64,000 bases of DNA from Candidatus Obscuribacteraceae bacterium (GTDB taxonomy: Bacteria > Cyanobacteriota > Vampirovibrionia > Obscuribacterales > Obscuribacteraceae), in assembly GCA_044226015.1 (NCBI GenBank), contig JBGAHS010000005.1, positions 64,001 to 128,000 on the forward strand. The letters run 5' to 3'. Shown here in pieces: positions 21,628 through 50,300 of the stretch. The position numbers and the translations under genes are program-made. Each line of letters begins with the position of its first letter. Within the stretch, counting starts at the first letter, position 1. A model generated the notes under the pieces. It was given only the letters and a program-made list of their open reading frames with translations. It had not been told where the DNA came from and did no database searches.

Positions 21628-23088
21628 ATGCAGTTGTCTCTGAAACAAAAAAGCTTGCTTCTGGTGCTAGTTCCAGTGCTTTTTGAACTATTTTTCATTG
21701 TTATTTTGTTTGGTCTTTTGCGCCAGGCTGAGCATGAAGTCTGGCGAGAGACTCATGCAAAAGCTGTGATTTCCGAATCGAACGACATCTGGCGTCTTGC
21801 TTATGACACGGGCATAACCCTGTTCAGTTTTGCTGCGACTCGCCATTCAGCACTAGCCATCAAGTTTGTAGAAACCGAGACCGAGCTTGTAAACCATCTC
21901 AATACTCTGAAACTATTGACACAGGGGCACCCTAAGGAAGAAAAGCTTTTTGCCGAAGTTAATAAGTATGCCCAGTCCTCTCGTGTAGCTCTAAGAAATG
22001 CTCACCAAGCACTGGTTGATTTGAGTGTAATCGATGCAAGTTCGCGCATGCGAAGTCTGCGGAAGAACTTTGAAAGTGTAATACCGCAGCTTGTAGCAGC
22101 TCTCGGTGAGCTAAATGAGTACGAAAAGAAAATCGCAAAGAATAGCCCAAAGGCACAGGAACAATCACGACGCAATGTCCTCTATTTTCTTGTCGCTGGA
22201 ATCGTGTCTAGTACCGCACTGGCTTTTGCATTGGCAAGCTATTTTAATAAGGAGGCACTAGAGCGCTTAGGTGTAGTGATTGATAATACAAAGAAACTGG
22301 CTACTCGCGAAAAGTTGAATGCACCCGTTGCGGGCACGGACGAAATCGCTAGCTTAGACCACGTGTTCCATGACATGGTTGACGCCTTGGAGCTTGCGGC
22401 CAAGCGAAAGCAAGAACTGATGTCTATGGTTAGTCATGACCTTCGTTCTCCACTCATGTCTGTGGAAATTGCACTCGGTTCAATTTGTAGTGGCGTATAT
22501 GGTGACTTGCCAGAATTGATGAGCGAGCCTGTGCAACAATCTCGTCGCAATACTGTGAGACTAATCGAGCTGATTAATGATCTCCTTGATATAGAGAAGC
22601 TTGAGTCCGGAACTATGAGCTTAAACGCCCGGCAATGCGCCGTTAGCGAGATTTTCGATAAGTGTTTTGATGCAGTTAGCTCAAGTGCAGGGCAGAAATT
22701 GATAGATCTCGATCTGCAAGATTCTGATATCGAAATTTATGGCGACCCCGATCGATTAACGCAGGTTTTGGTAAATCTCATTTCCAACGCTATCAAATTC
22801 TCCTCGGAAGGAGGCAAAATTATCGTTTCTGCCTCTGTTAGAGACACTTTTGTCGAATTTGCAGTTGTGGATCAAGGAAGGGGCATTCCCTCTGAAAAAA
22901 TCGGAGTGATTTTTGATAGATTCTCCCAAGTGAATAATTCAGATGCTCAAAGAGGTAAAGGAACAGGGTTGGGGTTGGCTATCTGTAAGGCGATTGTTGA
23001 ATCTCACGGAGGGCAAATCGGTGTATCTTCCGAGGTCGACCAGGGCAGTCGATTCTGGTTCAAAATTCCTTTAGCGGAGACTCGCTAA
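21628..23088 (+). CDS. Membrane sensor histidine kinase (TM-sensor-TM-HAMP-HisKA-HATPase)
   Basis: VSHDLRSPL, NLISNAIKF, DQGRG, GTGLGL. Confidence 0.95.
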   Translation: MQLSLKQKSLLLVLVPVLFELFFIVILFGLLRQAEHEVWRETHAKAVISESNDIWRLAYDTGITLFSFAATRHSALAIKFVETETELVNHLNTLKLLTQGHPKEEKLFAEVNKYAQSSRVALRNAHQALVDLSVIDASSRMRSLRKNFESVIPQLVAALGELNEYEKKIAKNSPKAQEQSRRNVLYFLVAGIVSSTALAFALASYFNKEALERLGVVIDNTKKLATREKLNAPVAGTDEIASLDHVFHDMVDALELAAKRKQELMSMVSHDLRSPLMSVEIALGSICSGVYGDLPELMSEPVQQSRRNTVRLIELINDLLDIEKLESGTMSLNARQCAVSEIFDKCFDAVSSSAGQKLIDLDLQDSDIEIYGDPDRLTQVLVNLISNAIKFSSEGGKIIVSASVRDTFVEFAVVDQGRGIPSEKIGVIFDRFSQVNNSDAQRGKGTGLGLAICKAIVESHGGQIGVSSEVDQGSRFWFKIPLAETR

Positions 23089-24225
23089 ATGTCTAGGTGT
23101 TTGAGAGGAATAAATGCAGTTTTACTTGTGGTATCGATTCCCCTTCTGTCCTCATGTTCTGTGGAGTCCTCCTCGGAAGGAACACTATCTTTTCTGGGAA
23201 ATTCCTACACTTTGCGATGCTGGGAGCGTGAATGTGTAGATGGTCAGCATGCAATGCTCGCTCAAGATTATCGTGAGGCCGCAAAGTGTTTTAGCAAGGC
23301 TCTTGCTTATGCAGGAGGTGGTGCGAGGCTTTTCCAAACACAGCTGCTTCTTGTAGCGGTTGACCTGGACCAAAAGCAGTATGATAGCGGGCTGCGTATC
23401 TGCCGCCAGATGAATGAGCGCGCTCATAGTGCTTACGAACTCTCTCTACTTGATTTGAATCTTGGAAAGTGCTTTTCCGGGTTGCAACGATTTGCTGATG
23501 CTGAAAAAAGTTTCCGATCATGCATCGCTAGAAACGACGCAATAAAAGCTCAAGATGAAGAAACTAAGTTGCTTACTCTAGATGCTCTGGTGTTGTTGAT
23601 TGATTGTCTAAGAATGCAGGGAAAAAACGCAGATGCTGATAATGTTCTTTCGCAGTGTGAGGGGCTAAAGTCCAGGCTGATGAATGTCGTGGAGAACAAT
23701 GATAAGTTCTTGATTGCTCTAGGGCAGAGTCAGCTAGCGAAGACCCCAGATGAAGCGATAAAGATTTTATTGCCAGAGGTAGAGAAGAAAGAAAATCAAG
23801 CGAATACGAATGAGTTTAGAAATGCGATGAAATTTCTTGTGCTCATGTACGCTCGCAATAATGATGATGACTCCAGCCGAAAAACGATGAAAGACCTTTT
23901 GCGTGTTATGAACTCTGACCCATTTTGTTTAGCTGGTGACAGACTCAGATTATTGCTTTATTCTGCCGAGGATTTATTTCTCAGCTCAAAAATAGAATTA
24001 AGTAAGGAAATGGCTTTGGAAGCCCTTCGAATGCGGGCTGCAGCTAAGTCTCATCAGTTATTCGACATACTTTTGCTTCTTGCTCAGTGCGACTACCGCT
24101 TGCATAATCCGAAGGAGGGCAAGCAATACACCCTTGAGGCTGCAGCTGTCGCTGAGAAATTTACCAAAGACGAGAAGGTCAGGTTGGAAAGGCTGAAAAC
24201 GTTCCGGGAAGTGACGGGCTATTAG
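23089..24225 (+). CDS. TPR-repeat putative lipoprotein
   Basis: Hydrophobic leader ending LLSS-C; TPR-like helices; abuts the kinase stop codon. Confidence 0.78.
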   Translation: MSRCLRGINAVLLVVSIPLLSSCSVESSSEGTLSFLGNSYTLRCWERECVDGQHAMLAQDYREAAKCFSKALAYAGGGARLFQTQLLLVAVDLDQKQYDSGLRICRQMNERAHSAYELSLLDLNLGKCFSGLQRFADAEKSFRSCIARNDAIKAQDEETKLLTLDALVLLIDCLRMQGKNADADNVLSQCEGLKSRLMNVVENNDKFLIALGQSQLAKTPDEAIKILLPEVEKKENQANTNEFRNAMKFLVLMYARNNDDDSSRKTMKDLLRVMNSDPFCLAGDRLRLLLYSAEDLFLSSKIELSKEMALEALRMRAAAKSHQLFDILLLLAQCDYRLHNPKEGKQYTLEAAAVAEKFTKDEKVRLERLKTFREVTGY

Positions 24226-24285: not shown

Positions 24286-24957
24286 ATGGCAAAAATTCTA
24301 CTAGTCGAAGACAATCAAGAGCTAGCGCAGCGACTCATAGAGTGGCTCAAATTCAACAAATACACCGTTGAACATGCAGCTAATGGTGAAGATGCCTGTG
24401 AGTTGCTCGATCTTTCTGCTTTTGACATAGTGGTCCTCGATTGGGACCTTCCAGGTAAGTCAGGACTGGAGGTATGTAAATCGTTGCGCACTAAAGGCGG
24501 TACCATTCCTGTGTTGATGCTTACCGGGAAAGATGCCGCTATGGACAAAGTTAGTGCCCTTGATGCAGGTGCAGACGACTACGTAACAAAGCCCTTCAAC
24601 TCGGAAGAGCTTGGTGCAAGAATCAGAGCCCTTTTAAGAAGAGGAAAGGTCGAAAGCTCTAGTAAGCTCGTTGCTGGGGCGCTTGAACTTGATAGGACCT
24701 CTCATGAGGTTTGTCTCAACGGCAAGAAATTGCGTCTCTTCCCAAAAGAATACTCTATGCTTGAGTTATTCATGAACAATCAGAACAGAGTATTCAGCCT
24801 TGATGATATTCTCAATGCCATTTGGACTATGGATTCGTCAGGCTCTGAGGAAACTGTCCGCACCTTCATGAAGACATTGCGCCGCAAGGTCACTGCTGAG
24901 GGTGGCGAGTGTCCTATAAAGACTGTTTATGGATTTGGATATAAATTCGAAGTTTGA
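24286..24957 (+). CDS. OmpR-family response regulator
   Basis: ILLVED, VLDWDLPG, LMLTG, DDYVTKPF, IKTVYGFGY. Confidence 0.96.
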   Translation: MAKILLVEDNQELAQRLIEWLKFNKYTVEHAANGEDACELLDLSAFDIVVLDWDLPGKSGLEVCKSLRTKGGTIPVLMLTGKDAAMDKVSALDAGADDYVTKPFNSEELGARIRALLRRGKVESSSKLVAGALELDRTSHEVCLNGKKLRLFPKEYSMLELFMNNQNRVFSLDDILNAIWTMDSSGSEETVRTFMKTLRRKVTAEGGECPIKTVYGFGYKFEV

Positions 24958-25745
24958 GGCGCCTTATGTCGATAAAATTCAATATCAGCTTTCTGTTGAT
25001 TTTGTTGTTTCAGTTGACGCTTCTGGCGGGTCCACGTGATGTCTGTGCAAAATCGGAAAAGACTGAAAAGTCAGAGCATAGCTCGAAGCCTGATCAGCTC
25101 TCGGATGATGCTGCAATCTATCTCTCTGGTGAATACGATACCGCTCTAGCTAAGTTTCAACAGCTGGATAAAGATGCGCCTGAGAATGCAAGAACTCAGT
25201 ATTATCTAGGACTCTGTTCGATGCGTTTAAGAGACCAGGAAGCGGCAGCTAAGTACTTTGAATTGATGAAGAAATTCGCCAAGGACGAGCAAAGTAAGCT
25301 GCTTGCTGAAACATGGCTAGCTAGAATTGAGCGTCATCAAAAGCACATTAGTGATAACTATTCGATATCGGCACCAACGGTCGCAAAAGAAAACGAGCCT
25401 GTAATCAGAGTCCTCTGGTTTTTTACAAACTGGTGCCCAAAATGCAAACGATTTCGTGAGCATTTCAATAATGCGGAGACGTTATTTCCTTCATTGAAGT
25501 TTGAGCAAATAAATTCAGAAGACCCCCAAAATTGGGAACTCGTTTCAAAATATAAGGTTCGGTCTTATCCAACGCTGGTTTATTTCGGCAAGAACGGCAA
25601 GATCATTGAGAATTTTGCTGGAGCTCCTATGGGTAATACTTTCAATGAGCACCTGATGTCCATGGGGGCAAAGCCTGCAGAACCGTCTTTGCCGTCCGTT
25701 GACGATGGCTCTCAGAGTCTGACTAAACAGGGTAAAACAAAGTAG
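24954..25745 (+). CDS. Exported TPR-thioredoxin fusion
   Basis: Signal peptide, TPR pair (YYLGLC), WCPKC active site, SYPTL cis-Pro motif; start may be ATG 24966. Confidence 0.85.
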   Translation: MRRLMSIKFNISFLLILLFQLTLLAGPRDVCAKSEKTEKSEHSSKPDQLSDDAAIYLSGEYDTALAKFQQLDKDAPENARTQYYLGLCSMRLRDQEAAAKYFELMKKFAKDEQSKLLAETWLARIERHQKHISDNYSISAPTVAKENEPVIRVLWFFTNWCPKCKRFREHFNNAETLFPSLKFEQINSEDPQNWELVSKYKVRSYPTLVYFGKNGKIIENFAGAPMGNTFNEHLMSMGAKPAEPSLPSVDDGSQSLTKQGKTK

Positions 25746-25771
25746 ATGACTTTGTTTTCAAGGAAATTCAT

Positions 25772-26185
25772 ATGACTGTAATGTTGTGTCCTTGCAAAAG
25801 TGGGAAAGCCTATAAGGCTTGCTGTAAAGGATTTCATGAAGGTAAATTGCCAAAAACAGCTCTTGAGCTGATGCGCTCAAGATTTTCTGCTTATGCTCTG
25901 AGGCTGCCGGATTACATAATTGAGACTACTCATTCTGATAACCCGGGGCGGATAGCGGACCAAAAGTTGTGGCGAAAGGAAGTTCTGAAATTCTCCGAGC
26001 AGACAAGATTTGATGGTTTGAAAATCGAATCGTTCGAGCCAGGTGAGGAATCGTCCTTCGTATGCTTTACTGCGCAATTACGGCAGGGAAGTCGAGATGC
26101 TAGTTTTACGGAAAAAAGTCTTTTCGAAAAAGTAAATGGGAAGTGGCTATATAAATCAGGCGTCACTCAAGGAACAGTAAAATGA
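25772..26185 (+). CDS. ychJ: YchJ-family (SEC-C/UPF0225) protein
   Basis: CPCKSGKAYKACC..FH, TALELMRSRFSAY, FTEKSLF...WLY..G. Confidence 0.88.
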   Translation: MTVMLCPCKSGKAYKACCKGFHEGKLPKTALELMRSRFSAYALRLPDYIIETTHSDNPGRIADQKLWRKEVLKFSEQTRFDGLKIESFEPGEESSFVCFTAQLRQGSRDASFTEKSLFEKVNGKWLYKSGVTQGTVK

Positions 26186-29100
26186 GCTTGTCGCTGTTCC
26201 AGCGTGGATTGATCCTCGTTGGAGTGCCGCTCTTATTGGAAATTTTGCTGATAAGTTCGCTCTCTTTCTTGCTTTACCAGTCTGCCGAGGAGCGACTTCA
26301 AGAAAATAAGTACAGAAAGTTCGCCTCAGAAGTTGCTAGCTTGATAGGTTATGTATCCAGTGCGCCTTTCGAATTGGCATCTTCAATTCAATCGCGAGAT
26401 GAGAAACACTTTCGCCGATATGAGTCTCAAGTCCTGAGGTCGCGAAAAGCACTGGACGAAGTTGGACAGATAATCAAAGACATTCCTGAGGTTACTCAGA
26501 GTGATTATGATGAGCTGAAGAAGAGTGTGGATGCTGTTTTTGACGTAACTAAAGATATTGCTGCAAAGCGCAAGGACGTTGATAGTTTTAATACCATTGA
26601 AAAGATGGAGTCCTTTCAAGCAACTCTATCTAAGACCAAAAGGTCCTGTTATCTACATTTAGAGCGCATGTTCGATGTGGGTGATGAAATGACAGAAATC
26701 GCTCAGGCAAAGCTGAACAGAACGCAAGAGATTCAACTTCTTATAGTTCAAATAGGAATAGTAGCCAATCTTCTGGTCGCAGTCGCCCTTACTTTCTTTT
26801 TCAAAAGAGGCATTTCTCAAAGAATCGGTGTCATAGCTGAAAACACAAACGCACTTGCACGCGGTGATTCGTTGCTGTCAGAGTTGGGCGGAACTGATGA
26901 AATTGGAAAGTTCGACCATGCCTTTCACAAAATGCTAGAGCAATTGGCAGCTGCATCTAAGAATGAAAAGGACCTATTCGAAAACGCCAGTGATGTAATT
27001 CTAGTTCTCGATGCTGACGGGAAATTTGAACGAGTTAGTCCAGCATCTAATAAGGATTGGCACTATAGCCCAGATGAATTACTAGGGAAGTCGTTGGACA
27101 CTATTTTGCCCGCTTCCGAAAAAGAATCTGTTCTGCTGCATTTGGAGAATGTTCGAAACAATCTCGACCGTCCGAGTTTCGAATCTATCATACTCACTAA
27201 AAACTCGTCTGAACGAGTTGGTTTATGGTCGGCCTATTGGTCTAGCGAAGAAAGCAAAATGTACTGTATTGTCCATGACGCTACTGAAGCCAGGTCGATA
27301 GAAAATGAGCGTAAAAAGTTTCTGGAACTAATAAGTTCAGATCTCAAAATACCACTGCAAGTCATTTCTGATTCCTTTCGCAAGATTGGAACTATATTTG
27401 GTGCTGATGTCTCACCAAAGCTGACTGAGAAGCTCGACATGACACGCAAAAATTTGCGTAGACTGCTTGCTCTCGTTAATGATTTGCTTTTGGTCAGTCA
27501 GATGGAAAGCGGCAGTTTTGAGCTAGATTTGCAAAGTCAGGATCTAAACGAGCTAATGAGAAGTGCTGCTGCTGATCTTGAAGCACTTCTTTCCAATAAG
27601 CAAATTGAATTGCTGGTTCAAGATTGTGATAGCTGTGTTTTTGCCGACCATGGGCGAGTTGTTCAGGTTATCGTCAATCTGCTTTCCAACGCGGTTAAGT
27701 TCTCTGCAAAGCAAAGTCAAATAACTCTGACTGGAAGAATAAGTGAAGACGATTTAGACTCTGTAAGAATAGAAGTTCGCGATCAGGGGCGAGGAGTTCC
27801 TCCATCACACATCGACAAAATTTTTGAGAAATTTAGTCAGGTGGAGGTCGCCGACGGAAAGCGTAAGGCTGGCACGGGGCTGGGCTTGCCGATTTGCAAA
27901 CAGATAATTGAGCTGCACGGCGGCAAAATTGGTGTGAATTCAGTTGAAAATCAAGGCAGTACCTTTTGGTTCACCCTGCCCCGCAATCAATCGGCTTTTG
28001 AAAAAACTATCGCTTCCTCTTCCATTAGTGAAACAGCGCTGGCTGAGCAAAAGGCGCCAACGGATCCTGTCGCGGCAGTGCCATTTGACCGTCTTAACTC
28101 CGGGGCTGAAGCGGCTAGTAATGTTGACCATAAAGAACTTGCAAGTGTGGGTCATGAAGGCACTCTTCAAACCACTCTTAGAACCAACTCAGATTTTGCC
28201 TCGAAGTTAAGCCGGCAATCTCATGAGCAATCAGCGCAAGAACTCGATAGTGCGAGGACACAGTACAATCATAATTTTTTGAGTAACTTTTTTTCGGGGC
28301 TCAGCATGGGGCAGAAAGGCACGCTGCTCGTTGCTGTGCCACTCGCGGCCGAAATTGTACTTTCAGGATTCTTGTTTCAGTCTTTGTTGCAGACCCAACA
28401 CTATCGCATGAGAGAACTCCATCGTCGCCAGGTGGCGCTTACTGCAAGCAAGTTATCCAAATTTATTCTCTATTCTTCAGGCTCAGTAGTAAACAATGTA
28501 AAAAGCTTCCGGTGGGATCGTTTTTTGAAAAGTATCAAAGCTTGTAGAACACTTGAGGTTATACTGAATGATCTTGTTGCGGAAGACCCGTTCGAGCGCA
28601 AAGAGTTTGAGCAGTTTATGCGCCTGGCCGGCAACTTAAATGAATACAGTCTAAAACTCGTGAAAAGCAATCTCGCAAATTCCAACGAAGGGGTTGCGAG
28701 TTTGCTACAGGAAAAGGTACGGCATCTTAAGGATGTAGCCGCCGTCTGTACTCACCTGCGAAATATTATTCACGAAGCCGAGAAAAAAGAATTTGCCAGC
28801 CCCGAGCGTGAGCTGAGCCAGAGGCATATCCAGGTTATGCTGTTATATTTAGCCTTATTTATAAACATTGCCTTCTCAGTATTTCTGTCAATCTTATTCA
28901 GTGTTGGCGTATCTAAACGCATCCTCGTTATGGCTGACAACGCCAGGCGTTTGGCAAACGATGACCGTCTCAACCCTCTTATTGGCGGAAAGGATGAGTT
29001 GGCTAGATTGGACCAGGCATTTCACCATACCGCCAATCTGTTAGCAGAGGCACGAAGAAAAGAACGCGCTGTCCTTGATAATTCAAAAGATGTGCTCTGT

Positions 29101-30108
29101 GTCTTATCTCGGGAAGGTCAATTCGTTAGTGTTAATCACGCTGCGACACAATATTGGGGTTTTGATAAACGTGAGCTGCTCTCAATGAATGTGAAGCAGA
29201 TTATGAACTCTGCAGATTTCGAGCTGCTCAAAAATGCTGTTCTTAATGATACTGCCGGTGGTGATACTCTCGTTGCTTTAGAGTTGAATGTAATGCGTGA
29301 GAACGGCTCTTCAGTACCAGTTTTGTGGTCAGCCACGCGACGATTGGGTCAGGAAAATATTTTTTGTGTTGTGCATGATATAACGAATAAGCGTGCTCTA
29401 GAAGAGCTTAGAAGAGAATTCCTGGCTATGGTGAGCCACGACTTGCGAACTCCGCTTACCTCCATAGTTGTGGTCGCCTCTTTGTTGGAAGCCGGGGCGT
29501 TTGGTCCAATTCCATCCGAATGCGCAGAACCAATAGCAACTGTGAAATTGAATGTACAGTCCTTGCTTGAGCTAATTAGCGATATTCTCGATTTGGAGAA
29601 ATTGTCTGCTGGCAAGATGCAACTCAACTTGAGTAAGGTGGCATGGTCTTCTGTTGTCTTGCAAATGCACAATCTGGCGCTGACACTTCGTTGTCCTTTT
29701 GACGTGGATATAAGCGAAGAACTAGCTGACGAATTAGTAGAGATAGACGAAGAGCGCTTAGTTCATGCATTGATGAGTCTAGCCAAATACCTTGCCTTTC
29801 ACACACCCGACGAGGCAGGGCGATCCATCCAAGTTTCTTTTGAACGACTGAATGACGGAATGAAGGTCGTTATTGGTGATAACAGCTCAACGCAGGCTGA
29901 CGGTTTGCAGACTTTGTTCGACACTGAAAACAGGGCGGCAAAAACTGTTCTTATGAGAGATGAGACTTTCCATCCAGAAATAGCAGTTCCTCTGGCCAAG
30001 AAAATAATTGATTCGCATTCCGGAGAAATCGAGTTTCTGTTTGGTAACTCAGGCAATAGATTAGATATATTTCTTTTCCGAAAGTCAGAAACAGCCGGCA
30101 AATCCTGA
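26182..30108 (+). CDS. Tandem double histidine kinase, 2x (TM-sensor-TM-HAMP-PAS-HisKA-HATPase), with reciprocally degenerate catalytic motifs
   Basis: Module 1 H-box ISSDLKIPL (no His) with intact N/G1/F/G2 boxes; module 2 VSHDLRTPL with degenerate N/G boxes; H-boxes exactly 700 codons apart. Confidence 0.92.
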   Translation: MSLSLFQRGLILVGVPLLLEILLISSLSFLLYQSAEERLQENKYRKFASEVASLIGYVSSAPFELASSIQSRDEKHFRRYESQVLRSRKALDEVGQIIKDIPEVTQSDYDELKKSVDAVFDVTKDIAAKRKDVDSFNTIEKMESFQATLSKTKRSCYLHLERMFDVGDEMTEIAQAKLNRTQEIQLLIVQIGIVANLLVAVALTFFFKRGISQRIGVIAENTNALARGDSLLSELGGTDEIGKFDHAFHKMLEQLAAASKNEKDLFENASDVILVLDADGKFERVSPASNKDWHYSPDELLGKSLDTILPASEKESVLLHLENVRNNLDRPSFESIILTKNSSERVGLWSAYWSSEESKMYCIVHDATEARSIENERKKFLELISSDLKIPLQVISDSFRKIGTIFGADVSPKLTEKLDMTRKNLRRLLALVNDLLLVSQMESGSFELDLQSQDLNELMRSAAADLEALLSNKQIELLVQDCDSCVFADHGRVVQVIVNLLSNAVKFSAKQSQITLTGRISEDDLDSVRIEVRDQGRGVPPSHIDKIFEKFSQVEVADGKRKAGTGLGLPICKQIIELHGGKIGVNSVENQGSTFWFTLPRNQSAFEKTIASSSISETALAEQKAPTDPVAAVPFDRLNSGAEAASNVDHKELASVGHEGTLQTTLRTNSDFASKLSRQSHEQSAQELDSARTQYNHNFLSNFFSGLSMGQKGTLLVAVPLAAEIVLSGFLFQSLLQTQHYRMRELHRRQVALTASKLSKFILYSSGSVVNNVKSFRWDRFLKSIKACRTLEVILNDLVAEDPFERKEFEQFMRLAGNLNEYSLKLVKSNLANSNEGVASLLQEKVRHLKDVAAVCTHLRNIIHEAEKKEFASPERELSQRHIQVMLLYLALFINIAFSVFLSILFSVGVSKRILVMADNARRLANDDRLNPLIGGKDELARLDQAFHHTANLLAEARRKERAVLDNSKDVLCVLSREGQFVSVNHAATQYWGFDKRELLSMNVKQIMNSADFELLKNAVLNDTAGGDTLVALELNVMRENGSSVPVLWSATRRLGQENIFCVVHDITNKRALEELRREFLAMVSHDLRTPLTSIVVVASLLEAGAFGPIPSECAEPIATVKLNVQSLLELISDILDLEKLSAGKMQLNLSKVAWSSVVLQMHNLALTLRCPFDVDISEELADELVEIDEERLVHALMSLAKYLAFHTPDEAGRSIQVSFERLNDGMKVVIGDNSSTQADGLQTLFDTENRAAKTVLMRDETFHPEIAVPLAKKIIDSHSGEIEFLFGNSGNRLDIFLFRKSETAGKS

Positions 30109-30246
30109 CGTAAAAAGTCGGCGTACTGTCCGAAAAACTTTACAAGCAAAGGGTTAATGGGAATTCCACCATTCACGCCGACGCCTGACGAATCTATATT
30201 TAACCCAAACCCCCGCATTTTAACGACTAGGCATGGTAGCCGGGAC

Positions 30247-32619
30247 ATGAATGTGAAAATAAAATCGCTCTTCTGCATAATTCTGGCCTTTCTGGTAGAG
30301 ATTCAATTTTCTGGCATTGCGGCCTACGCTGAGCAAAACATAGCTCAGATGCCAGTGATAGTGTCTCCTCTTCATGGAGGAGTTGAAGTTGTCACCAAGA
30401 ATGGTGCCCATATAATTCGAAAAGTGCGACGAGTTCGATATTACAAACGAAGTGCAGGCACGCGCAGTGTAAGGCGCTATCACGTTGTGCGTCACACTCG
30501 CAGGTCTCATGCACCAGCGACCACTACTCACACTCGAGTCGGGGACAAGATCGTAAACAGACCGACAGCGGCTTCGGCAGCCGCTCACAATGCTCACAAT
30601 TTGACACCACATCCAACTAATGTGGAACTTCCGCGCAATATCGTTGAGCCTTTGATTATTCATGGAATGGACAATCTCAAGGCCGGTAAGCGCTACATTG
30701 AATTGGTTGAGAGAGACGGTAAGCTCTTCATAAAAGAGGACGGTGATATCGACCCCAACGGCATGTTTGTCGAGGTCGAAGAAGAAGACGGTGTTTGGAA
30801 AATCAAAGGCACCGACATTGTTATTGATTACGCTAATACATTCGACCTTGCTAAGGTTCCACCTGGTGTGAAAGCTTACTTGCGTCCATCGACAGATTAC
30901 ATTGCGCCTGATGAGTCTTATGTTCAATATAAGGAAGGCGCGAATGACGTCATACCTATAAAAGAAGATACAATTCCTCCGCTTGTCGATGCTGGTGACT
31001 ATGTAGAAGTGCACCAGGTTGCAGCCGATGGCGATTTTGCGCCAGGAACCTGGGAAACTGTTGAAGTGCCTGTTGGACAGAGCTCTGTTCCTGGTGGAAC
31101 TGAACTTGTTCCAACTACAGTGACTGGCGGTCCAGGCGTGACTGTTCCAGGTGGACCAGGCGTAGTAACTGAAGTTCCTTTGGGTCCAGGTGGACCAGGC
31201 GTTGTTGCTGTACCAGGTGTACCCGTATCGGGTGGACCGCTCATGACGGGCGGACCAGGCATACCAGTAACAGGCGTTCCAATCGGTGGCGGACCTGGCG
31301 GTGTGCCAGTCAGAGCAGGTGGTGTGCCAGTGGCAGGAATTCCAATGGGAGCTCCTCCAGTTACGCCTCCCGCAACTCCGGCAACTGAAGCTGCCCCTGT
31401 GCCTCCGGCAGTGCCCGTAATTCCTCCAGTCGCAGAAGTTCCTCCGGCAGCTGGTATTCCAGCTCCTGGTTTTCCGATGGCTTCTCCTGACGCACCCGGC
31501 ACGGTGACACCATTTGTACCTGTTGGATCTGTTCCACCACCAGCAGCTGGTGGCAGAGGCTTTGGCTTACCTGGCGGCATCCTTCCAGCTCTCCTCGGAG
31601 CTGGTGCATTGGGCGCCATTGTTCCACTCGCATTGATGAACCGTGGTGGCGGGGGCGGTGGCGGCGGTGGATTTTATCCAGTACCCGTTGGTACTCCTGG
31701 ACAGCCTGTGATTACCGGCGGCACTCCGGGAATCACACCAACACCAGTTGTTTCACCTCCGGTTACCCCTCCTGTTACACCTCCCGTTTGCAACAACCCT
31801 CCGCCATGTAACCCTCCGGGTGGCGGCGGTGGTGATTGTGGCGGCGGTCACGGTGGTGGTGGTCATGGTGGCGGTCACGGTGGTGGTGGTCATGGTGGCG
31901 GCGGTCATGGCGGTGGCGACAACTGCGGACCAGGTGGTCATGGTGGCGGAAATGGCGGACATCATGGTGGTGACAACTGTGGACCAGGCGGTCACCATGG
32001 CGGCGGCTACGGCGGTGGATGTAATCCTCCTCCTCCAGTTTGTCCTCCTCCCCCAGTTTGTCCTCCTCCAACAACTTGTCCTCCTCCTGTTTGTCCTCCT
32101 CCAACTAACTGTCCTCCTCCCTACTACGGTGGCGGTGGATATGGCGGTGGCATCGGTTGTGGACCTGGCGGTTACGGTGGTGGATATGGTGGCGGCTATG
32201 GGAATGGCTGCGACAACGGCGGTTATGGTGGCGGATACGGTGGTGGTTATGGCAATGGCGGCTGTCCGACCATGGGCAACGCTAGCAAGTTCGGATGCAG
32301 CCCTCCTGATGGATGCTCCACTTCATTCAAAGAAAAATGGTGGTCTCAGCATGGTCGCTCTTACGATTACAATGGACCATGCGCCGGACAACAATCAGCT
32401 TGCGCCAGCAATATGATGAATAACTGTGGTCCAGGAATGGGCGGCGTTATGGGTGGTGTGATCGGTGGAGCTATGGGTGGTGTCATCGGCGGTGCAATTG
32501 GTTCAGGGTTTGGTGGCGCTTGCGTCCCGGTCACTCCATGTGTACCAGTGACTCCATGTGTACCAGTGACTCCCTGCGTTCCAGTAACCTGTCCTCCAGT
32601 TGCTGATTGCGGGTACTAG
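30247..32619 (+). CDS. Exported or membrane Gly/Pro/Cys-rich low-complexity protein (~790 aa)
   Basis: ATG 30247 gives a signal peptide ending AYA-E; VPGGPG, GGH, CPPP, GGY and CVPVTP blocks with varied third codon positions. Confidence 0.85.
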   Translation: MNVKIKSLFCIILAFLVEIQFSGIAAYAEQNIAQMPVIVSPLHGGVEVVTKNGAHIIRKVRRVRYYKRSAGTRSVRRYHVVRHTRRSHAPATTTHTRVGDKIVNRPTAASAAAHNAHNLTPHPTNVELPRNIVEPLIIHGMDNLKAGKRYIELVERDGKLFIKEDGDIDPNGMFVEVEEEDGVWKIKGTDIVIDYANTFDLAKVPPGVKAYLRPSTDYIAPDESYVQYKEGANDVIPIKEDTIPPLVDAGDYVEVHQVAADGDFAPGTWETVEVPVGQSSVPGGTELVPTTVTGGPGVTVPGGPGVVTEVPLGPGGPGVVAVPGVPVSGGPLMTGGPGIPVTGVPIGGGPGGVPVRAGGVPVAGIPMGAPPVTPPATPATEAAPVPPAVPVIPPVAEVPPAAGIPAPGFPMASPDAPGTVTPFVPVGSVPPPAAGGRGFGLPGGILPALLGAGALGAIVPLALMNRGGGGGGGGGFYPVPVGTPGQPVITGGTPGITPTPVVSPPVTPPVTPPVCNNPPPCNPPGGGGGDCGGGHGGGGHGGGHGGGGHGGGGHGGGDNCGPGGHGGGNGGHHGGDNCGPGGHHGGGYGGGCNPPPPVCPPPPVCPPPTTCPPPVCPPPTNCPPPYYGGGGYGGGIGCGPGGYGGGYGGGYGNGCDNGGYGGGYGGGYGNGGCPTMGNASKFGCSPPDGCSTSFKEKWWSQHGRSYDYNGPCAGQQSACASNMMNNCGPGMGGVMGGVIGGAMGGVIGGAIGSGFGGACVPVTPCVPVTPCVPVTPCVPVTCPPVADCGY
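32521..32592 (+). repeat. Four 18-bp coding repeats, CVPVTP x3 plus CVPVTC
   Basis: TGCGTCCCGGTCACTCCA / TGTGTACCAGTGACTCCA / TGTGTACCAGTGACTCCC / TGCGTTCCAGTAACCTGT. Confidence 0.9.
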
Positions 32620-43040: not shown

Positions 43041-44114
43041 ATGAAAATCCTGATTGCAGATGATGATCCCCACTCATTGCGTTTGCTCAGATTGATTCTA
43101 TTGAAAGACGGCTATGAGGTTGTAACTGCCAGCAATGGCAAAGAGGCTCTTGCAATCCTCGAGCAGAGAGATTCGCCGCGCCTGGTTGTTTTAGATTGGA
43201 TGATGCCAGATGTTGATGGATTGACAATTTGTCGGAAGATTCGGGCTGCTGAAACAGAGGATGAATACCGGTACATCGTGCTTGTCACCGCGCGTGGTGA
43301 GACGGAAGATTTGGTTACTGGCATGAATGCTGGTGCAGATGACTACATTGTGAAACCCTTTCACGAGTCAGAATTAAAAGTAAGACTCAGGGCTGGGAAG
43401 AGAATTCTCGACTTGCACAAGCAGTTGCTTGAGCGAACTCAAACAGTGCAGGACTTTGTATATGCATTTTCCCACGACATGCGTACACCGCTAATCGCGA
43501 TCAATCTAACCATGTCACAGGCTATTGAAGGCATTTTTGGCGACATGACAAATGAGTATGTGAACATACTTCGGAAATCAAAGCGTTCAATTCAAGAATT
43601 GATGAATATGGCGGATACACTGCTTATGGTGGCACGCTATGAATACAATCAGAAAGCTCTGGAAAACAACTCGATTGATTTGAATCAAACTGCGCGTGCT
43701 TGTGCTGAAGAACTTGAACCTATTGCGGCTAGTAAGGGCATAAAGATTAAAGTGTCGTCGCCTGAGACTCGTCCAGTAATTAATGGAGACGCGCAGTCAC
43801 TGCGGCGTTTGTTTATCAACCTGATAGACAATGCAGTTAAATTCAGTCCTGAGGGCAGCTCGATCAAAGTTAGCTTTGAAAATTCGGGAAACAAAATAAT
43901 CACGTCAATCATTGACTCCGGACAGGGTGTGCCTGAGGAAGAACAGAACTTGTTGTTTCAACGCTTTTCCAGTAAAACTCGGCGAAAAGGCAGTGGTACT
44001 GGACTCGGTTTGTATCTCTGCAAGAGAATTGCGGAGGATCATGGGGGAGATTTGACTTACAGGCTAGATGCTTCTGTAGGCAGCGCTTTTGTATTAGAAC
44101 TGCCAGTTAGCTAA
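43041..44114 (+). CDS. Cytoplasmic hybrid kinase (REC-HisKA-HATPase)
   Basis: ILIADDD, LDWMMP, FSHDMRTPL, NLIDNAVKF, DSGQG, GTGLGL. Confidence 0.94.
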   Translation: MKILIADDDPHSLRLLRLILLKDGYEVVTASNGKEALAILEQRDSPRLVVLDWMMPDVDGLTICRKIRAAETEDEYRYIVLVTARGETEDLVTGMNAGADDYIVKPFHESELKVRLRAGKRILDLHKQLLERTQTVQDFVYAFSHDMRTPLIAINLTMSQAIEGIFGDMTNEYVNILRKSKRSIQELMNMADTLLMVARYEYNQKALENNSIDLNQTARACAEELEPIAASKGIKIKVSSPETRPVINGDAQSLRRLFINLIDNAVKFSPEGSSIKVSFENSGNKIITSIIDSGQGVPEEEQNLLFQRFSSKTRRKGSGTGLGLYLCKRIAEDHGGDLTYRLDASVGSAFVLELPVS

Positions 44115-48538: not shown

Positions 48539-50071
48539 CTAACGGTTTGCGATCTTCTTTGTGCGCTCTGTTTTGCTGGTTTCGATAAGCTCAGTGTCAG
48601 ATGGTTTTTCAGAAGGCTTTTCCACTGGAATGCGGAACCAGAAAGTGCTGCCTTTTCCTTCTACACTTCGAACACCAATTTCGCCGCTGTGAAGTTCAAC
48701 TAGTGATTTGCATATAGCAAGACCAAGTCCTGTGCCTTTTTTCTTTTTTGCGTCGCCAATTTGATCCACCTGTTGAAACCGTTGGAACATGCTCTTCATG
48801 AAGCTCTCTGGAATGCCTCTTCCCTGGTCGACAACTCTCAATTCAACCGTATTTCCCTCAGCGGGAACAGCTTCCAATGTCACGGTGCTTTCTGCCGGTG
48901 AGAATTTGATCGCGTTGGAAATAAGATTCACTATAACCTGGATGATTCGATCGCCATCTGCGTAAATTTGTAGGTCGGTGTCGACGATCTTGATGTTCAC
49001 ATTTTGCTTTTCTGCGAATGCTTTTACAGATTCGAAAGAACGTTCAAAAATAGGCAACACTGGAGTTCTATGGCAATCGATAGCCAACTGTCCTGCTTCC
49101 ATTTTCTCTATATCTAGCAAGTCGTTGATTAGATTAATCAGGCGAGTTGTGTTGTTCTCTGCGTTTGTGACCTCTTTGTGAGCACGCACCGGCAATGAGC
49201 CTAGTACTCCTTCAGAGAGCAAAGTGAGTGATGCTTGTACTGAAGTTAGTGGTGTGCGAAGGTCATGGCTGACCATCGACACGAGTTCTTGTTTTCGCCT
49301 TGCAGCTTCGGCAAGAGCTTCGGCCATATTGTGAAAGACATGGTCCAGGTGTGCAATTTCGTCTCCGCCCCCGATTCGATCGTGAAGCGTTTGGTGCCGC
49401 GAAAGTCTATCAGTGTTATCCATGAGAATCAATAGGCGTTTTGTCGTGCCACGATTGAAGTAGATTGCCAGTGAAACAGCAAGAATGACATTCGCAAGAA
49501 TGCCTGCAGCAAGGCAGTAAATAACAATCAATCTAGATTTCGCCTCTGCTTGAGGATCTATTTGCTCGGATTTCTCCATTTCTTTGATGAATGCACGCAA
49601 TTCACCTGTCAGGTCAGAAAGCAGAGTTTCCATAACTTCTTTGTCGGCTTGTAATCTGTTAGCCATGCGCGATTCGGCTACCAGAAGGCTGCCTCGGGCG
49701 AGAAGTTCTGTGGCGCGGTTACCGATTTTTTGTACTCTAGTAAGTGCCTCTTTTGTATTTCGACTATCACGCAAAAGAGTCTTCAGATTGGAAATCTGAT
49801 TTGGAATTTCCACGCCCAGGTCTTTATAGCGCTCAAGCATGCGATCGGAACCCGTGGTTCCGTAAATGTACAGGGCGAGCCCGCTGTCCATAATGTTCTT
49901 GAGGAGATTGTTAGACTCTGCCAGCACGGCTTTGGAGTGTCGTTCTCTCCATATTTCGACTTCTGCCTGTTTTAGTGCAAAGATCAGTACCACCACGAAA
50001 AAGATTTCAAACAGCAGCGGTACTGCTACTAGAATTAGACCTTTGTGTGATAGCTGTAGATTAATCTTCAT
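48539..50071 (-). CDS. Membrane sensor histidine kinase, paralog of 21628-23088
   Basis: VSHDLRTPL, NLISNAIKF, DQGRG, GTGLGL; ATG 50071 aligns with the paralog start. Confidence 0.95.
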   Translation of the reverse strand: MKINLQLSHKGLILVAVPLLFEIFFVVVLIFALKQAEVEIWRERHSKAVLAESNNLLKNIMDSGLALYIYGTTGSDRMLERYKDLGVEIPNQISNLKTLLRDSRNTKEALTRVQKIGNRATELLARGSLLVAESRMANRLQADKEVMETLLSDLTGELRAFIKEMEKSEQIDPQAEAKSRLIVIYCLAAGILANVILAVSLAIYFNRGTTKRLLILMDNTDRLSRHQTLHDRIGGGDEIAHLDHVFHNMAEALAEAARRKQELVSMVSHDLRTPLTSVQASLTLLSEGVLGSLPVRAHKEVTNAENNTTRLINLINDLLDIEKMEAGQLAIDCHRTPVLPIFERSFESVKAFAEKQNVNIKIVDTDLQIYADGDRIIQVIVNLISNAIKFSPAESTVTLEAVPAEGNTVELRVVDQGRGIPESFMKSMFQRFQQVDQIGDAKKKKGTGLGLAICKSLVELHSGEIGVRSVEGKGSTFWFRIPVEKPSEKPSDTELIETSKTERTKKIANR

Positions 50072-50300
50072 GTCTGGCAGAGGTTTGTCCAATCTAAAAA
50101 GTACCCGATTGGCTCTGGTTCAAAGCTTCAATGAGTGTTGTTTTTTGCTGGCATTCTGATAAAGACGAACAATTAATCTTTGCTCTCAATCGCTGCTTGC
50201 GGATGAATTTCGGCAGACTGTCTATAATGACTTTATTGGATCTTTCAGTAAGTAGCGGTGACATTTGCTCAGCGGAAACAATAGCAATTTTTTCGGTTCG

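Follow-up and report, generated by a model that had tools for sequence, protein, structure and literature searches.

Sensor histidine kinases are taught as homodimers, and the kinase heterodimers known to us are inhibitory or artificial. Pseudokinases of the ChpT type have lost one catalytic element and kept the fold, and DivL and ChpT each act alone as a regulator or phosphotransferase, without a complementary half. DivL, seen among the nearest solved comparisons of the domain for dimerization and His phosphotransfer (DHp), carries Tyr in place of His and keeps its fold despite this loss. Among unrelated enzymes, which serve as analogy only, the C1/C2 pair of mammalian adenylyl cyclase and those ABC transporters in which one site is degenerate are fused homodimer duplicates that keep one composite site. 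Here, we describe a 1308-aa tandem membrane histidine kinase of a Candidatus Obscuribacteraceae bacterium (contig JBGAHS010000005.1, positions 64,001 to 128,000; this whole stretch of 64,000 nucleotides is termed the window), in which neither module holds both the His and a live ATPase and the chain as a whole holds one of each. It is a real, conserved, and repeatedly evolved variant of the class I (HisKA) histidine kinase.

CpxA and GacS, class I kinases acting in trans, have the same per-module domain order, and their active-site residues map one to one onto those of the 1308-aa protein. In the trans assay of the GacS study, an H293A mutant was mixed with a G2-box mutant, G472A/G474A (PMC8498467); the 1308-aa protein encodes such a mixture of His mutant and G2 mutant naturally. 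CpxA is already asymmetric, with one catalytic and ATP-binding (CA) domain mobile and one held (PMC3904827). However, CpxA and GacS are homodimers with two equivalent faces, whereas the 1308-aa protein is one chain with two different halves and one face. CheA3/CheA4 of Rhodobacter sphaeroides resemble it in placing the ATPase and the phospho-His on separate, cooperating parts, but they are soluble, separate class II proteins that lack whole domains, share no membrane sensor, and show no reciprocal decay of two full modules (PMC3591291). Such a two-protein split occurs only in two-gene relatives, while the 1308-aa kinase is a single open reading frame (ORF). RetS-GacS of Pseudomonas aeruginosa is a natural DHp-DHp heterodimer (PMC8498467, PMC5992135), and RetS, like module 2 of the tandem kinase, has an H-box with a degenerate ATPase (PMC5992135). 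Yet this pairing is transient, inhibitory, and unfused, with GacS a complete kinase, and pseudokinases of the RetS/DivL type differ from the 1308-aa chain, which has both the His and a canonical ATPase.

The double-core soluble or hybrid kinases P0098, P0103, P0109, and P0320 also carry two HisKA-HATPase cores per chain, but both cores are intact and separated by a receiver, and the membrane sensor is not duplicated. Several entries in P0098-P0120 and P0305-P0366 are hybrid kinases in which a receiver sits between two transmitter cores, with nearly all motifs intact; the named double-core hybrids come from other phyla, and P0098 carries an ETR1_N domain. Rv0600c-Rv0601c is reportedly split, although a review names just two kinases and one regulator for it. 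A 2025 review mentions, in the passages found, only inhibitory or sequestering kinase heterodimers (PMC12189002). The literature searched, with subscription journals largely outside, gave no account of a sensor kinase that is both fused and reciprocally degenerate, in line with an earlier reading of the DNA alone (the sequence-only reading) that knew of no described example.

Domain organization of the tandem kinase

The features of the kinase are as follows.

26182..30108, + strand, tandem membrane histidine kinase, 1308 aa, (transmembrane (TM)-periplasmic-TM-HAMP-PAS-DHp-CA) twice; from the open frame, Pfam, half-to-half alignment, and an AlphaFold2 (AF2) model of residues 181-1308
26287..26733, + strand, periplasmic sensor 1, residues 36-184, CHASE3/four-helix-bundle-like by ESM Atlas features
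26734..27294, + strand, TM2, HAMP1, and PAS1, residues 185-371, by Pfam and AF2
27295..27519, + strand, His-less DHp1, residues 372-446, with Asn424 and Arg427 retained on helix 2
27643..27987, + strand, canonical ATP-binding domain CA1, residues 488-602, Pfam HATPase_c at 110 bits
27988..28296, + strand, cytoplasmic linker back to the membrane, residues 603-705, mostly low-confidence in the AF2 model
28303..28833, + strand, TM3 and periplasmic sensor 2, residues 708-884, helical bundle by AF2 and half-to-half alignment
28834..29394, + strand, TM4, HAMP2, and PAS2, residues 885-1071, by Pfam and AF2
29395..29619, + strand, His-bearing DHp2, residues 1072-1146, with His1086, Asp1087, Arg1089, Thr1090, Asp1137, and Lys1140
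29737..30075, + strand, degenerate CA2, residues 1186-1298, without its N, G1, and G2 boxes but still predicted to fold

The sequence-only reading had described a head-to-tail duplication of a membrane kinase, and the two modules are indeed homologous, with 124 of 458 aligned columns identical (27%, E 7e-43); the alignment runs to the end of the DHp domain and stops ahead of the ATPase domains. The codons bear out its account of the two H-boxes: Ser386 (TCA, 27337-27339) stands in place of the module-1 phospho-His and Ile390 in place of the Thr at H+4, while module 2 has His1086 (CAC, 29437-29439) in a canonical H-box and Thr1090 at H+4. The canonical CA1 and degenerate CA2 of that account were recovered as well, Pfam placing HATPase_c in module 1 only (489-602); its strongest HisKA stretch lies in module 2 (1077-1144), and there are two PAS stretches. 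There was no Pfam match in the chain to Hpt or CheW such as a class II Hpt/P1 acceptor would suggest. Periplasmic sensor 1 had no Pfam match at the cut-off, but its ESM Atlas features (0.96 for CHASE3 and 0.94 for 4HB_MCP/TarH) suggest that it resembles CHASE3 and four-helix ligand-binding domains. The linker of roughly 110 aa, already noted in the sequence-only reading, is the longest among 83 full-length homologs, with a Pro600-Pro720 span of 121 residues against a median of about 67 and a minimum of 47.

An independent sample of activated sludge from 2016 gave a contig that spans the gene with six substitutions, none of them at the Ser386 or His1086 codons, and no indels; no stop or frameshift thus separates the modules, and, together with the full-length homologs, this rules out a frameshift or assembly artefact. 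Ser386 was rejected as a substitute phospho-acceptor, since the site holds eight different residues among the 83 homologs.

Conservation among full-length homologs

A search with the whole protein yielded these 83 full-length homologs (1210-1353 aa), whose taxon-named members belong to Obscuribacterales or Melainabacteria. Scored against NCBIfam kinase families (WalK, PhoR, AtoS, and others), the 1308-aa protein stayed below the curated cut-off in each of the best 25 of 83 family matches, the best score being 288.8 for WalK against a cut-off of 725. Across the full-length homologs there is no variation at His1086 or at eight CA1 motif residues, including the catalytic Asn499 and Asn503, while the module-1 phospho-acceptor site is His in just 16 of the 83. 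A His-less DHp1 with a degenerate CA2 occurs in 66 of the homologs (reciprocal, hereafter derived); 15 are fully intact, and two have one loss. This is the pattern to be expected if reciprocal loss is not random decay, as had been argued from the intact frame.

The residues around the active site are divided in the same way. In the 66 derived homologs, His, Arg+3, Thr+4, Asp+51, and Lys+54 (counted from the His) are conserved at 96-100% in module 2, with Thr1090 at 96%, and module 1 has lost the His and the residues at +4, +51, and +54; at H+3, module 2 has Arg where module 1 mostly has Lys. Arg+41 shows the opposite distribution, being 100% conserved in module 1 and lost from module 2. In the 15 intact homologs, His, Arg+3, Arg+41, Asp+51, and Lys+54 are all at 100% in both modules. 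Mean identity is 66.6% for CA1 vs 33.3% for CA2 in the derived proteins, compared with 66.7% and 66.6% in the intact ones. In seven pairs, nonsynonymous differences per site (pN) are fewer than synonymous ones (pS) in every region, including the His-less DHp1, the dead CA2, both sensors, and the HAMPs; pS is saturated in these pairs, so that no dN/dS ratio is computable.

Census of two-module membrane kinases

Homolog searches and this genome together yielded, with duplicates removed, 186 proteins that have two HAMP modules, of which 40 are intact, 138 reciprocal, seven lack one element, and one is truncated. Each of the 138 has exactly one His and the ATPase of the other module, with no same-module pair. 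They fall into two polarities, 104 forward, as in the 1308-aa protein, and 34 reversed, and the unused ATPase has been deleted in 25 of the 34. Six kinds of double loss are conceivable, and the only two observed are those that leave a trans pair; the counts are unchanged at motif thresholds of 7 and 8. A whole module beside a dead one was found in none of the 186, and such proteins would probably have been caught through their intact half. The second-shell residues sort likewise across all polarities: in non-intact proteins, Arg+41 goes with the live CA (141/145, vs 16/144 otherwise) and Lys/Arg+54 with the His (134/151, vs 14/138 otherwise). Intact motifs prevail among single-module relatives (88 of 94).

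Left out of the 186 were 54 multi-domain matches, namely own-genome duplicates, genes with a single module, double-core hybrids that do not have two HAMPs, fragments (P0116, P0168, P0274), and rows in which the first HAMP was missed (P0291, P0293); these five named proteins show the same cross-module pattern as far as their sequence reaches. Three proteins of 603-622 aa (P0215, P0225, P0235) are single-module PAS kinases with a canonical ATPase and no His, which might be partners of further split pairs, or fragments. P0136, P0150, P0161, and P0201 are PAS-type tandems of reversed polarity; in P0136, the module-2 His has become Gln and the first ATPase is partly decayed, so that its reversal looks recent.

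Correspondence with the CpxA trans complex

In an alignment with CpxA, module 2 takes the positions of His248, Glu249, Arg251, and Arg296, and module 1 those of Asn356, Asn360, Phe403, and Leu419; the His-side residues and the attacking CA thus lie on different modules. In the trans Michaelis complex of CpxA, the CA touches Arg296 of the opposite, His-bearing monomer, and phosphorylation occurs mostly once per dimer, with one CA held inactive and the other mobile (PMC3904827). Judged by this mapping, the residues retained in the 1308-aa protein are the CpxA trans complex divided between two halves.

Distribution and origins

In the order Obscuribacterales, 18 of 107 genomes were matched at 1e-100, and none of 300 phylum genomes outside the order at 1e-70, with two candidates scored per genome. 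The loci read within the order contain reciprocal tandems in eight other genomes, intact tandems in three, and ordinary single-module kinases in four. In this genome (G000), kinase profiles matched 84 ORFs, among which are 16 two-module membrane kinases and one split pair. Seven of the 16 are like the 1308-aa protein, four are PAS-less with the same polarity, one is intact, and four are reversed with the first ATPase deleted. The forms that depart from the 1308-aa protein are located as follows.

C1:850540, C11:10873, C11:129735, C3:210294, and C6:217382 of G000, PAS-less tandem kinases of about 1000 aa, four of forward polarity and one fully intact
C8:228042-230612, C8:604429-606969, C10:374995-377559, and C12:264098-266764 of G000, reversed tandem kinases of 846-888 aa
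G000:C8:205401-208467 (L001:5402-8468), - strand, two-gene (unfused) version with overlapping genes

The four reversed proteins have the His in module 1 and the live ATPase in module 2, and the one at C12:264098-266764 still retains its module-2 His. In the two-gene version, the first gene encodes a His-less kinase with a canonical ATPase, and the second a kinase that bears the His but whose ATPase is partly degenerate; this version was found at six of 19 loci read, in six genomes of this genus (G000, G059, G062, G063, G064, and G065), and a looser pair occurs in another genus (G058, L090:3018-6079). This family of intact, forward, reversed, ATPase-deleted, and two-gene forms was overlooked by the sequence-only reading.

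Reversed forms nest among intact relatives in PAS and PAS-less lineages alike, which indicates at least three origins; a 68-row tree, in which 16 of 98 forward PAS proteins and the trait-bearing DHp columns were included, gives seven state changes. It is fairly probable that Obscuribacterales repeatedly made obligate heterodimers with a single trans site, fused in either polarity, ATPase-deleted, or encoded by two genes, which would provide each receptor with an asymmetric two-part sensor free of mispairing with dozens of paralogs. Consecutive arrays of tandem kinases with all motifs intact were also seen, at L042:6585-18030 (G054) and L050:1-7931 (G055); the G054 array has three tandems in a row adjoining an EF-Tu-like gene.

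Proposed mechanism and alternative explanations

We put at about 80% the probability that the 1308-aa protein acts as a covalent pseudo-heterodimer, with signaling via paired HAMP and PAS domains, CA1 phosphorylating His1086 in trans, and DHp2 alone carrying the regulator-docking surface and the phosphatase motif. An ordinary class I dimer has two faces because the kinases phosphorylate in trans; here, the two modules of one chain would take the places of both subunits, the sensor, TM, HAMP, PAS, and DHp segments of module 1 pairing with those of module 2 and the linker looping from CA1 back to the membrane. On the single retained face, CA1, together with helix 2 of DHp1, would bind ATP and phosphorylate His1086 on DHp2, which also retains an HDxxT phosphatase motif and a regulator-docking helix, whereas the other face, formed by the residue-386 site and CA2, would have decayed. 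The signal would pass through the paired HAMP and PAS domains, and the output would reach a regulator encoded elsewhere, probably of the OmpR type; the genome has 41 OmpR-like regulators. The sequence-only reading had further seen a two-input integrator in the two sensors, a view that gained no support; a single asymmetric site made up of both four-helix sensor halves is just as conceivable.

The evolutionary path may have led from a single kinase to a fused, intact tandem, then to the loss of either face, and sometimes to deletion of the idle ATPase. After fusion or obligate pairing, an ATPase whose opposite His has been lost no longer has a substrate, so that decay of one face can be neutral; selection may act to keep the sensor asymmetric, or to guard against mispairing where paralogs are many.

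For the pseudo-heterodimer with the direction CA1 to His1086, as first proposed, the comparative evidence is strong, while structure prediction gave a weak pass. The cytoplasmic halves with ATP and Mg scored 0.49, compared with 0.00 for the best of three controls, with contacts agreeing at least 59% and a partner predicted local distance difference test (pLDDT) of at least 76; the pass mark is reached by 116 of 157 solved complexes and two of 215 mismatched pairs. AF2 gave a pLDDT of 84.3 for residues 181-1308, with a disordered linker and CA2 still folded, and 83.4 for a full-length reversed member. In a fold search, none of the solved chains listed covers more than one module, with a query TM-score of at most 0.18.

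Several observations count against this proposal. The predicted template modeling (pTM) scores of the two AF2 models are modest (0.63 and 0.60, respectively), and the score band up to 0.60 in the complex prediction holds just 18 of the 157 solved complexes and both passing mismatches; the pass may reflect likeness to solved kinase dimers. Forty relatives retain both faces, and loss is thus not required; moreover, the 104 forward proteins are largely one clade, with CA2 loss a single change on the 83-row tree, and the counts therefore overstate independence, not being 138 separate events. Asp+1 (Asp387) is retained in the His-less DHp1 of 78 of the 83 homologs, for which the proposal does not account. 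We infer the role of Arg+41 from its co-segregation, the excerpted CpxA text making no mention of Arg283. The partner ATPase of the split pair keeps six to seven of nine motif residues and may not be dead. VicK and HK853 are among the nearest solved DHp sequences, and HK853 acts in cis. VicK is likewise described as cis in the CpxA study (PMC3904827).

The same complementary chemistry could instead run between chains, in a domain-swapped dimer or an array, with fusion only fixing stoichiometry. The two-gene form works, if at all, in this way, the long, low-confidence linker would permit swapping, the pTM values are no higher than 0.60-0.63, and RetS-GacS has been proposed as a domain-swapped oligomer (PMC8498467). 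However, none of the 83 homologs has a Pro600-Pro720 span shorter than 47 residues, and the minimum distance from CA1 to HAMP2 is 215 in PAS forms vs 191 in no-PAS forms; these minima fit a linker running back along its own rod and argue weakly against pairing between chains, and high local concentration would favor closure within one. We regard this alternative as unlikely.

More doubtful still is a protein without autokinase activity that serves as a phosphatase, as a phosphate sink, or as an inhibitor of other kinases in the manner of RetS or DivL, in which nucleotide binding by CA1 serves as an allosteric switch. Module 2 is like RetS, which combines an intact HExxT-type motif with a degenerate ATPase and acts as a phosphatase (PMC5992135). 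The strong conservation of Thr1090 fits such a role, as does the scarcity of OmpR-type genes within 2 kb of tandem or split kinases (3/17, vs 9/9 for single-module kin). Against this stand the His of all 138 reciprocal proteins, always accompanied by a complete ATPase on the other module, and the invariance of the catalytic Asn499 and Asn503 among the 83 homologs, since a pure phosphatase would not need both. Homotypic DHp1-DHp1 and DHp2-DHp2 bundles with CA1 reaching His1086 as in CheA3/CheA4, or plain decay of a redundant duplicate, could draw on the split enzyme-and-substrate kinases described in PMC3591291 and on the seven single-loss intermediates, but are very improbable given the division of helix-2 residues between modules by face, the absence of one whole plus one dead module from the 186, and purifying selection on the HAMP and sensor segments of both halves.

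If the pseudo-heterodimer is true, these proteins would form an undescribed natural class of (pseudo)heterodimeric kinases and a genome-level proof of trans action, evolution having run the His-mutant and ATP-mutant complementation several times and in both directions, with intact ancestors still present. The family would then allow the residues belonging to each catalytic face to be read from sequence and provide a clean case, in bacteria, of a homomer evolving into a heteromer through complementary loss. Natural one-site kinases could test how dimer asymmetry and half-site reactivity drive signaling, the 25 members without a second CA bear on whether that domain is needed for phosphatase activity, and the architecture may be a scaffold for single-chain or two-input engineered receptors.

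Gene neighborhood

Upstream of the tandem kinase in the window lie the following genes.

21628-23088, + strand, intact single-module kinase
23089-24225, + strand, TPR protein
24286-24957, + strand, OmpR-type regulator

For each of the regulators at 24286 and about 46100, which the sequence-only reading had named as candidate targets, an intact single-module kinase of its own lies within 2 kb (21628-23088 and 48539-50092), and those at 24286 and 45965 were not supported as partners, an intact kinase being nearer or just as near to both. It is nevertheless possible that the regulator at 24286 is shared with the tandem kinase, because the trio of kinase, TPR protein, and OmpR-type regulator also flanks the ortholog in G065. 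A promoter scan found seven matches, compared with 12.6 expected by chance.

The regulator is separated from the tandem kinase by TPR-thioredoxin and YchJ/SEC-C genes (24954-26185), the last of which overlaps the start of the kinase; none is listed between these genes at the G065 locus. On the other side, at 30157-32619, an 820-aa protein with Pro/Gly/Cys-rich repeats has no Pfam or NCBIfam match, and a 47% identical homolog occupies the same place beside the G065 ortholog (L039:7476-9956). Farther along the window, at 43041-44114, a Receiver-HisKA-HATPase hybrid kinase is encoded with its motifs intact.

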